From the NCBI GenBank assembly GCA_964482995.1, contig CAYZZC010000001.1, positions 4,867 through 68,866 of the forward strand: a stretch of DNA of 64,000 nucleotides, given 5' to 3'. The stretch's first letter is position 1, and each line of letters begins with the position of its first letter. Origin of the DNA: an uncultured Candidatus Saccharibacteria bacterium. Its GTDB lineage: Bacteria; Patescibacteriota; Minisyncoccia; Phycocordibacterales; SBAW01. Both the position numbers and the translations under genes were made by a program. Of this stretch, positions 44,658-51,509 are shown piece after piece. Below the pieces are notes generated by a model, which searched no databases, was not told where the DNA came from, and saw nothing but the letters and a program-made list of their open reading frames with translations.

Positions 44658-47600
44658 ATGCGTCAGCAAAAATTCTTCTCCCGTTTCCGTGCACCACGAG
44701 TTGCAACCCCCAACCTGGTGGAGGCGCAGCTCAACTCGTTCAATTGGCTTTTAACCGAAGGCGTTAAAGAAACATTTAAGGAGTTTACTCCAATTCGAGA
44801 CTACTCGGGGAAGAAATTTGATTTAGAATTTGTAAAAATTGAGATAGGGGAGCCAAAGTTCGACGAGCATTACGCAAAGGCGCAAAAAGCGACACTCGAT
44901 ATCCCGGTGCGCGCCATTGTCAAACTCAAGAACAAGGTTGCAGGGACAGAGAAGGAGCAGGAGATCTTCCTTGCGGACATGCCGGTCATGACCGACCACG
45001 GCACGTTTGTGATCAACGGCGTTGAGCGCGTTATCGTGCCGCAGCTCGCGCGCTCGTACGGCGTATTTTTTACTTCAGACGAAGTTAAGGGCAAGCGCCA
45101 CTTTGGTGCAAAGGTGATCCCGGCGCGCGGCGCATGGATCGAGATCGAGGCGGGCTCAGACAACGACCTCTCGGTGCGCATAGACCGTAAGCGCAAGTTC
45201 CCGGTTACCTCGCTTTTGCGGGTTCTTGGCGCGCGCTACGACAGCGACCTTCTCTCCCTCTTCTCTGCAAACGCGCAGGAGAAGCATTGGATCGAAGCAG
45301 CCATCGCTGCCGACCCCGCAAAAGAGCTTGAAGACTCTTATGTAGAGATCCACAAGCGCTTGCGCGATGGTGACTTGGCCACCGCAGCAAACGCTAAAGA
45401 GTATATCGACTCTATATTTAATGAAGAGCGTTACGACCTCTCGCGCGTGGGCCGCTACCGCTTTAACTCGCGCTTTAATAAATCGCTCAGCGAGAGCGAG
45501 CTTATGCGCAAGACACTTTCGCTCGATGACCTTGTTACTGTAGTTAAGAACGTAATCGCACTCGAGAATGACCCTAACGCGATGGAGGACAACATCGACC
45601 ACCTCGGCTCACGCCGTGTGCGCTATGTGGGCGAAATGCTCCAGAGCCGTCTACGTGTTGGCCTCACGCACATGAAGCGCAATATCCAGGACCGCATGTC
45701 GACTATCGACGCTGAGGCAACGATGCCAGTCATGTTTGTTAACCCTCGTCCGCTCCAAGCACGCATTAAAGAATTTTTTACCACCAACCAGCTCTCGCAG
45801 TTCATGCAGCAAAACAATGCGCTTGAAGAGCTTGAGCACTTACGAACGCTCTCAGCACTTGGGCCCGGCGGCCTAACCCGCGAGCGCGCAGGTTTTGAGG
45901 TGCGCGACGTGCACCCGAGCCACTACGGCCGCTTGTGCCCGATCCAAACTCCTGAAGGCCCCAACATCGGCCTTATTTTGCGTTTGGCAAACTTTGCACG
46001 GCTCAATGAGTTTGGCATGATCGAAACACCTTACGTAAAAGTAGTAAACGGCAAGGTTACCAACGAGATACAATATCTAAACGCCGCAGAGGAAGAGAAG
46101 CAGCCTATCGCACACGCGGCAATTAATGTCGGCGAAGATAATAAAATAAAAGAAGAGTCTGTAGAGGTCCGTCTTGGTGGCGAGCCTACGCGCGTACCAC
46201 GTAACGAGGTTACCTATATAGATGTAGCCCCTGAGCAGCCATTTTCAGTGGCGACTTCGATGATCCCGTTCCTCGAGCACGACGACGCAAACCGCGCACT
46301 CATGGGTTCTAACATGCAAAAGCAGGCGACCCCTTGTATTGTCCCTGAAGCTCCGCTTGTTGCCACCGGTATTGAAGAGCGCGCCGCAAAAGATGCCGGC
46401 CGCCTCCACTTTGCCCGCGAAGAGGGTGTGGTTACTGCCGCAGACGGCAAGCGCGTTAAAGTAAAAAATGCAAAAGGCAAAGAGCTCGAGTACCCACTCG
46501 TCAACTTTGTGCGCACCAACGCCTTCACCTCGCTACACCAACGCCCATCTGTCTCGGTTGGCGACAAAGTTAAAAAAGGCGACTTGCTTGCAGACACCTC
46601 AACCTCAGACCAAGGCCAGCTCGCGCTCGGGCAAAACTGCCTCGTTGCGTTTATGTGCTGGTCTGGTGCTAACTACGAAGACGCAATCATTATCTCTGAG
46701 CGCATGGTTAAAAACTCCAAGTTTGCATCTATACATATCGAGGAGTTTGTCTGCAACGTCCGCGACACCAAGCTCGGGCCTGAGGAAACAACACACGATA
46801 TCCCGAACGTCTCTGAAGTAAAGCTCCGCAACCTCGACGAAGACGGCGTGGTGCGCGTGGGCTCCGAGGTGCGCCCTGGCGACATCCTTGTTGGTAAAAT
46901 CACTCCAAAAGGCGAGACACAACTCACTCCTGAAGAACGTTTGCTCCGCTCGATCTTCGGCGACAAAGCGCGCGATGTTAAGGACTCGTCACTCCGCATG
47001 GAGAACGGCAAGCGCGGCCGCATCATCGGCGTCAAAGTATTTTCCCGCGAGGCAGGTCATGCTCTCGACTCTGGCATCATCAAGCGCATCCATATAGAGA
47101 TCGCGCAGCTGCGCCCAGTGTCTGTTGGCGACAAGCTCGCCGGCCGCCACGGCAACAAGGGAGTTATTTCCCGCATCCTTCCTGAAGAAGACATGCCATA
47201 CATGGCAGACGGTCGCCCAGTTGACGTTATTTTGACACCGCTCGGCGTGCCTTCTCGTATGAACCTCGGGCAAATCCTAGAGCTCCACTTGGGGTTGGCT
47301 GCAAACACTCTTAACTACCAAGCAATCTGCCCGCCGTTTGCAGGCGCTACTGAAACAGAAATCCGCGGAGAGCTTAAAAAGGCCGGCTTCAACGAAAACG
47401 GCAAGATGGCACTCTACGACGGCCGCACGGGAGAAAAATTTGAGCAAGATATCTCGGTAGGTTACATGTACATCCTCAAGCTCCACCACATGGTGGCCGA
47501 CAAGATCCACATGCGCTCGATCGGGCCATACTCGCTTATCACCCAGCAGCCGCTCGGCGGCAAAGCACAAGGCGGCGGCCAGCGCTTCGGCGAGATGGAA

Positions 47601-51509: not shown

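Follow-up and report, generated by a model that had tools for sequence, protein, structure and literature searches.

In the 64,000-nucleotide stretch of contig CAYZZC010000001.1 that we analysed (the window), the genes for RNA polymerase (RNAP) subunits beta and beta', rpoB and rpoC, form one continuous open reading frame (ORF), rpoBC. We hold it highly probable that this fusion is genuine and evolutionarily fixed in one clade of Patescibacteria (the Candidate Phyla Radiation, CPR), listed in public records mostly as Candidatus Adlerbacteria (class Paceibacteria, the Parcubacteria group), and that it arose by the loss of a stop codon and gives a normal core enzyme. An earlier interpretation of the window, made from its letters only (the sequence-only reading), had claimed that rpoB and rpoC are fused in a single ORF of 2283 aa, and the ORF, its translation, the Pfam domains and the curated family models were all in agreement with this claim.

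One reading frame for beta and beta'

According to the ORF list and its translation, the gene occupies positions 44658..51509 of the forward strand, starts with ATG and encodes 2283 aa without an internal stop or frameshift. The beta part precedes the beta' part: a complete RpoB module (aa 1-1046, 44658..47795, forward strand, delimited with Pfam and NCBIfam) is followed by a linker (aa 1047-1066) and by a complete RpoC module (aa 1067-2283, 47856..51509, forward strand, with the stop codon at 51507-09, delimited with Pfam and TIGR02386). The full set of RpoB domains in Pfam (Rpb2_1, 2, 3, 45, 6 and 7) was found across aa 19-1047, and the full set of RpoC domains (Rpb1_1 to 5) across aa 1066-2162. 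The RpoB motif GGQRFGEME is located at aa 973, the N-terminal zinc finger of beta' (CYCGKY...CEKC) at aa 1120, the catalytic NADFDGD of beta' at aa 1553, and IIGRLIPAGTGF, near the C-terminus of RpoC, at aa 2242. The protein passed the NCBIfam rpoB models NF001616 (score 1434.4 vs a cut-off of 896, aa 6-1047) and TIGR02013 (1415 vs 801), as well as the rpoC equivalog TIGR02386 (1474.7 vs 963.5, aa 1070-2255). One frame across a complete rpoB and then a complete rpoC, which is what defines a beta-beta' fusion in general, is therefore present at 44658-51509. The masses, roughly estimated from the lengths, are ~250 kDa for the fusion, ~117 kDa for beta and ~135 kDa for beta'.

Three contigs on record carry exactly this 2283-aa protein. 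Two of them come from different ENA assemblies (ERZ27247837 and ERZ27247830); one contig is 100% identical to the window over 12.8 kb, and the other has a single mismatch in 10.5 kb. Among 5.8 billion proteins searched, fused proteins made up 98 distinct clusters at 90% identity, of which ~85 were full length (2270-2299 aa) and 75-92% identical to the window protein; their sources were NCBI, JGI, ENA and Logan, and the named ones were labelled Candidatus Paceibacterota or Patescibacteria. We also ran a junction-spanning query against one genome per GTDB species and kept 80 loci out of 572 confirmed relatives. The frame was open through the junction in 16 of these 80 (L001-L015 and L018), most of which bear the name Candidatus Adlerbacteria. 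The remaining 64, with 62-73% identity in the junction region, had separate rpoB and rpoC and were named Nomura-, Kaiser-, Taylor-, Yonath- and Liptonbacteria, among others. In one of the fused loci, L009 (CAZDPP010000018.1), the frame breaks inside the rpoC part, leaving ORFs of 1586 and 807 aa, and the leader contains a run of N; the frame break is probably an assembly error rather than a real split.

Linker, probable origin and predicted product of the fusion

The two modules are joined by the linker MRGGEPMRGIKKTPGAESSD (47796-47855, forward strand), which we delimited from the sequence, its entropy and the alignments as the 20 residues aa 1047-1066. The length of 20 residues given in the sequence-only reading was right, whereas the exact stretch it named was off by one residue. 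Across 82 fused homologues the linker did not change in length, aa 1049-1056 were free to vary (1.6-2.9 bits of entropy), and aa 1057-1063 formed a conserved half with the consensus [RK]KTPGAE. This combination of a conserved and a variable half indicates a translated sequence under constraint and not a random read-through. When unfused relatives were aligned, the conserved half fell on their RpoC N-terminal tail (MKT..., KKKD...DF). Judging from these alignments, the variable half (aa 1049-1056) would be the former RpoB tail together with the spacer, and [RK]KTPGAE would be the former N-terminal tail of RpoC.

Comparison with solved structures was in line with this assignment. The beta and beta' chains of Bacillus subtilis reach within 3 residues of each other on the fused protein, with the beta' homology beginning at residue 5 of the solved chain; the chain ends thus nearly abut on the query, which suggests that the linker consists of just the two natural tails. 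None of the 60 best PDB matches listed has a chain running across the beta/beta' junction. Glu-C peptides that span the junction can be deduced from the sequence (LMRGGE and PMRGIKKTPGAE).

To place the fusion among its relatives, we used a neighbour-joining tree of the RpoC part of 82 sequences, in which the window and all 16 fused loci formed one clade without any unfused member. The proposal that the fusion is a lineage marker is thereby borne out, and the fusion is both reproducible and inherited, being found in independent assemblies, in 16 species genomes, in ~85 protein clusters and in a monophyletic clade. In the same tree, the fused protein P0089 was nested in an unfused Kaiserbacteria-like group and the fused P0088 adjoined the unfused L033, L022 and L021. 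A deep, entirely fused clade (P0091-P0098 and P0122, ~53% identity) had a different gene neighbourhood, ftsW-mltG-rpoBC-rpsF-ssb-rpsR. From this neighbour-joining tree, which is not a reconciled phylogeny, we infer at least four fusion events in Patescibacteria. One member of the deep clade, P0097 (locus L163; GCA_018333595.1, JAGXTG010000013.1), is a fused RpoBC of 2310 aa labelled 'Anaplasmataceae bacterium'; it groups with the Patescibacteria-type fusions in the tree, the Wolbachia-type model protein exceeds it by ~500 aa, and its label probably stems from an error in binning or naming.

The unfused relatives display what the ancestral arrangement may have looked like. In a sample of 77 unfused loci, drawn without bias by means of an RpoC-only query, the distance from the rpoB stop to the rpoC ATG was mostly -17 to +40 nt, and frames 0, +1 and +2 were represented by 31, 24 and 22 loci. 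In unfused relatives, the combined length of RpoB tail, spacer and N-terminal RpoC tail comes close to that of the linker (23 codons in L028, for example). The short spacers, many of them in frame, and the similar tail lengths indicate that the loss of a single stop codon would be sufficient as the origin of the fusion. In the ancestor, rpoB and rpoC would have been adjacent with a short spacer, as they still are in relatives; once the rpoB stop was lost in an in-frame arrangement, the linker of 20 residues would have formed from the C-terminal tail of RpoB, the spacer and the N-terminal tail of RpoC. We also considered frame conservation, or stop read-through, in the unfused relatives, as 64 of 64 loci were in frame with the junction query. 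This was rejected in view of the unbiased 31/24/22 distribution, and the 64/64 count is a ranking artefact because tblastn alignments run through an in-frame stop. In two unfused, Nomurabacteria-like metagenome loci, L125 and L133, rpoB and rpoC are parted by inserts of ~1.2 kb and ~0.8 kb.

The C-terminus of beta and the N-terminus of beta' adjoin within RNAP, and the fused ends would be neighbours in the enzyme as well. One polypeptide of ~250 kDa would fold into normal beta and beta' modules and would combine with alpha2 (plus omega and sigma, where present) to give a normal core enzyme. Being joined would enforce a 1:1 stoichiometry and make the association of beta with beta' intramolecular. 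These consequences for RNAP assembly, a subject on which the sequence-only reading had expected implications, are what we infer from the joined frame. The Helicobacter fusion is produced as one polypeptide, and splitting the gene in H. pylori reportedly caused no defect in fitness or assembly. By analogy with the Helicobacter and the engineered Escherichia coli fusions, the fusion is probably nearly neutral rather than the source of a new function. Natural fusions are described in Helicobacteraceae and Wolbachia (PMC7483510), and a synthetic beta-beta' fusion of E. coli is called functional where it is cited in bioRxiv 10.1101/2021.11.05.467461.

A joined frame could also come from an assembly or sequencing artefact, in which a lost stop or a 1-bp indel falsely unites two genes. 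The window derives from a metagenome-type assembly, and the frameshift within the rpoC part of L009, together with its run of N, demonstrates that such errors exist in these data. It is nevertheless exceedingly improbable that the junction is one of them, since the identical protein occurs in independent assemblies, all 16 species genomes and ~85 clusters are open across the junction despite their differing linker sequences, and the linker has a pattern of amino-acid conservation. The sequence-only reading had named an indel at the junction, or relatives with the same junction plus a stop, as the ways in which the fusion could prove false. Contigs of two assemblies carry the same protein, and the relatives with split genes turned out to be other, more distant lineages, whose junctions are unrelated and not the same sequence with a stop added; its claim of a natural fusion thus holds. 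A further alternative is that the ORF is fused, yet separate beta and beta' subunits are released from it, either by cleavage in the KTPGAE segment or by an internal start near Met1047 or Met1053. As the linker is conserved in its second half, this segment might be a site of processing, the window linker does have in-frame Met residues at aa 1047 and aa 1053, and an internal start would need no Shine-Dalgarno sequence, as most genes here are without one. The conservation, however, is explained without processing, as the KTPGAE half matches the RpoC N-terminal tail of unfused relatives, and a start-capable codon is not conserved, the residue equivalent to aa 1053 being I, V, L, M or T across relatives. 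The Helicobacter fusion is also made as one polypeptide, and we regard separate subunits as very unlikely.

The fusion itself might be adaptive for the reduced lifestyle of CPR bacteria, for instance by offsetting a missing assembly factor such as omega or by tightening co-regulation. Its repetition within Patescibacteria (the Adlerbacteria clade, P0088, P0089, and P0091-P0098 with P0122), its occurrence in the reduced genomes of Mycoplasma wenyonii and Wolbachia, and its retention across a clade that has diverged to 75% identity speak for such a role. Mutational opportunity by itself, however, would also lead one to expect recurrence, as the spacers are very short and a third of them are in frame, and most Paceibacteria are unfused, with only the 16 fused loci among the 80 kept from 572 confirmed relatives. 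An adaptive role therefore appears rather unlikely to us, and a nearly neutral stop loss is the reading we retain. Several points weigh against the reading as a whole. The single polypeptide is deduced from DNA alone; the linker might be cleaved after translation, and beta' might be initiated internally at Met1047 or Met1053. The analysis covered the fetched stretches of these genomes, and a second, separate rpoB or rpoC may lie elsewhere in them. The AlphaFold2 model of the junction (aa 850-1300, from a 27-sequence alignment) was unusable, with a mean predicted local distance difference test score (pLDDT) of 54 and a predicted template modelling score (pTM) of 0.34. Any selective advantage in stoichiometry or assembly is a conjecture.

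Promoter, predicted leader RNA and gene neighbourhood

A pattern scan located a sigma-70-type promoter upstream of rpoBC on the forward strand (44421..44448), with TTGACG at 44421-26, a 16-nt spacer and TATACT at 44443-48 (10 of 12 matches). Transcription is expected to start at ~44455, and ~205 nt separate the -10 box from the ATG. The position of CTTGAC-N16-TATACT was conserved across the loci of the fused clade, and an equivalent strong promoter was found upstream of rpoB in unfused Paceibacteria. The promoter and long leader proposed in the sequence-only reading are hence located and conserved; they are not connected with the fusion, since unfused Paceibacteria share them.

The transcript would begin with a structured 5' leader RNA of ~147 nt (44453..44599, forward strand), modelled as five hairpins by two covariance models, R1 and R2. 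The hairpins are P1 (44469-86), P2 (44494-516), P3 (44526-41), P4 (44549-64) and a terminal one (44566-82), all on the forward strand. Both models placed the leader immediately before rpoBC, in the window as well as in 15 of the 16 fused loci (L001-L014 and L018), and at a significant E-value it was confined to this position and to the fused (Adlerbacteria) clade. In a model-guided alignment, 91.4% of the leader cells were paired (32-52% in slid controls) and compensatory changes occurred in 19 leader pairs (2-9 in slid controls); as this alignment was fitted to the structure, both counts lean in the structure's favour. The structure is testable only after alignment with a covariance model, and RNAalifold, when given the leaders in a plain MAFFT alignment, found almost nothing. 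No gathering-level match to Rfam 15 was found in the leader, the sole match by E-value (6.6) being on the opposite strand.

The core motif of the leader, GAUUGAGU (44488..44495, forward strand), provides the 5' strand of the base of hairpin P2. Of 74 loci, both fused and unfused, 58 had the pattern GA[TGA]TGAGT in the 330 nt before rpoB, where 0.017 occurrences per 330 nt are expected. The motif is thus conserved class-wide in Paceibacteria, and it lies a short way past a strong sigma-70-type promoter. In the unfused lineages it makes a hairpin near the predicted 5' end of the transcript, with GAUUG pairing to CAAUC 10-15 nt farther downstream. At its other end the leader carries a terminator-like hairpin (44566..44598, forward strand) with a GGGAGC / GCCCCC stem, one A.C mismatch and the U-rich tail TATTTTCGCGTTT, which makes it a candidate attenuator. 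Across loci, the pairing of this terminal hairpin (helix 5) was kept with compensatory changes, and the TTTTCGYGTTT tail that follows it was conserved. A simple terminator scan of the window made no call at this hairpin, because its stem has a mismatch.

On the basis of these features, we prefer to view the element as a putative cis-acting leader and candidate attenuator. It is plausible, alternatively, that the region encodes a separate small RNA and that rpoBC is expressed as a leaderless mRNA from a more proximal promoter, given that most genes here are without a Shine-Dalgarno sequence and that a -10-like box stands 5-12 nt ahead of many start codons. In the window, a Shine-Dalgarno-like sequence precedes 9 of 46 genes, and a TATACT/TATAGT-like box lies 5-12 nt upstream of the start codon of many, which suggests that leaderless mRNAs may be common in the source organism. 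The missing Shine-Dalgarno sequence before rpoBC was considered as a special feature and rejected, as with 9 of 46 genes having one its absence is ordinary here.

Between the leader and the start codon we noticed a DnaA-box-like 9-mer, TGTGGATAT (44604..44612, forward strand), which is one mismatch away from TGTGGATAA, the reverse complement of TTATCCACA. Of 73 related loci, 14 had a perfect DnaA box (TTATCCACA or TGTGGATAA) in the 400 nt before rpoB (expected 0.002 per 400 nt), and 31 had a box with at most one mismatch (expected 0.105 per 400 nt). Such boxes lie near the rpoB promoter or leader in L005, L020, L021, L022, L049 and others, and the one in L020 sits within the promoter spacer. 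These positions hint at a possible control of RNAP synthesis by DnaA. Taken together with the promoter and the GAUUGAGU hairpin, the frequent DnaA box is compatible with a leader that could act as an autoregulatory attenuator tied to the level of RNAP or to the replication state.

The leader preferred here resembles the E. coli rplL-rpoB attenuator and the ribosomal-protein leaders (the L10 leader) in having a structured untranslated region and a terminator-like hairpin before rpoB, a likeness that would permit feedback control of RNAP synthesis and that is putative for the window. Unlike them, it matches no Rfam family in sequence or structure and has no rplJL upstream. Only tentatively do we suggest that Patescibacteria may be a hotspot of independent fusions, at least four in number, and that a hitherto undescribed cis-regulatory leader RNA may govern the RNAP subunits of Paceibacteria.

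In the window, rpoBC is preceded by rpsP, a KH-domain gene and trmD and followed by dnaG and rpoD (sigma, 53613-54863). The order rpsP-KH-trmD-rpoB/C-dnaG-rpoD was the same in fused and unfused Paceibacteria (L001-L080). Directly upstream of rpoB we looked for rplJ-rplL and found rpsP, the KH-domain gene and trmD in their place. The arrangement rplKAJL-rpoBC has been called universally conserved (PMC12993453), and the order in Paceibacteria is a class-wide departure from it that is unrelated to the fusion. The sequence-only reading was thus correct in that the gene stands alone after trmD and outside an rplKAJL-rpoBC context; this is not connected with the fusion, since unfused Paceibacteria have the same context.

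The terminator scan detected a bidirectional intrinsic terminator 26 nt past the rpoBC stop (51535..51562), with a 12-bp stem (AAACGGCGGGACC..GGTCCCGCCGTTT), common to rpoBC and to a convergent gene of 67 aa. With its own promoter, a convergent neighbour and a terminator right after the stop codon, rpoBC looks monocistronic. The 67-aa ORF (51580-51783, reverse strand) has two hydrophobic, apparently membrane-spanning stretches, a Shine-Dalgarno sequence and a perfect TTGACA-17-TATAAT promoter (51847-51819, reverse strand); the gene caller missed it in the public contig L161 and called it in L162. A minus-strand small RNA between rpoBC and dnaG, suggested by this promoter and the terminator, was rejected because the region is the gene of the 67-aa protein. 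Elsewhere in the window, an ORF of 2816 aa (33599-42049, forward strand) had an N-terminal HTH_17 and a glycine-rich Gly_rich_2 as its sole Pfam matches.

Relation to known fusions and significance

Textbooks confine beta-beta' fusions to Helicobacter and Wolbachia. The window protein fell below the cut-offs of both curated models of fused proteins, scoring 2095.8 vs 5372 bits with the Helicobacter-type NF007172 and 1975.2 vs 4632 bits with the Wolbachia-type NF011417, and the failure of both indicates an independent fusion. The Helicobacter/Wolinella RpoBC (NF007172 / PRK09603, 2890 aa) has the same layout, with beta N-terminal and beta' C-terminal in one ORF, and shares with the window fusion the short linker made of natural tails, the clade-wide fixation and the intact RNAP domains. 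It differs in belonging to Campylobacterota and not to Patescibacteria, in its independent origin, and in its gene context, the window fusion having trmD upstream and dnaG-rpoD downstream. The Wolbachia RpoBC (NF011417 / PRK14844, 2839 aa) is likewise a natural fusion in a reduced genome, but of independent origin, another size and another lineage. The window fusion is ~600 aa shorter than both model proteins, and it is shorter than the Helicobacter type because both of its modules are near minimal size. In the engineered fusion, as in the window, the C-terminus of beta is tethered to the N-terminus of beta', which shows that such a joint is compatible with assembly and function; that construct is artificial, whereas the fusion in the window is natural, fixed in its clade and linked by native tails only.

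Among 1.84 billion cluster representatives, a search with the junction fragment brought up junction-crossing proteins of 2000-2840 aa from more than 20 further deep clusters. P0136, P0272 and ~20 others represent such deep fused clusters, most of them without a name or taxon. Among the other fusions were a protein of Mycoplasma wenyonii (WP_014849752.1, 2648 aa) and one from a metagenome-assembled genome (MAG) of Anaerolineaceae (2744 aa). These two have the same architecture as the window protein and carry no annotation beyond beta' or 'multifunctional fusion protein', but they come from unrelated lineages, are longer and share 43-59% identity with it over the junction region. The view that natural fusions are known from Helicobacter and Wolbachia is accordingly right, while its restriction to only a few lineages is not, as many more fused lineages are present in public databases. 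In full-text literature searches, no paper came up that describes fused rpoB and rpoC for Patescibacteria, Parcubacteria or CPR, and the database entries for fusions of the window type are titled just "subunit beta'". Fusions are more widespread in databases than in the literature. The window protein is thus of a known kind, a beta-beta' fusion, that stands outside the two curated fused families and adds a new lineage.

The annotation as "subunit beta'" only has a practical side, since pipelines that expect separate rpoB and rpoC, such as those for phylogenomics, completeness estimates and rpoB amplicon databases, may mishandle fusions. With 2283 aa, below the 2890- and 2839-aa types, the protein could serve as a convenient single-chain minimal RNAP core. 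As a clean and easily scored rare genomic change, the fusion marks the Adlerbacteria-type clade and can aid taxonomy in a region of the tree that rests almost wholly on MAGs. Fusions recur in CPR and in more than 20 other deep clusters, beyond Helicobacter and Wolbachia, and the unfused relatives with short spacers display a simple mutational route to them. The leader RNA and the recurrence of fusions in CPR are the parts that most deserve follow-up, and the conserved leader offers a lead on how RNAP synthesis may be controlled under minimal regulatory repertoires.

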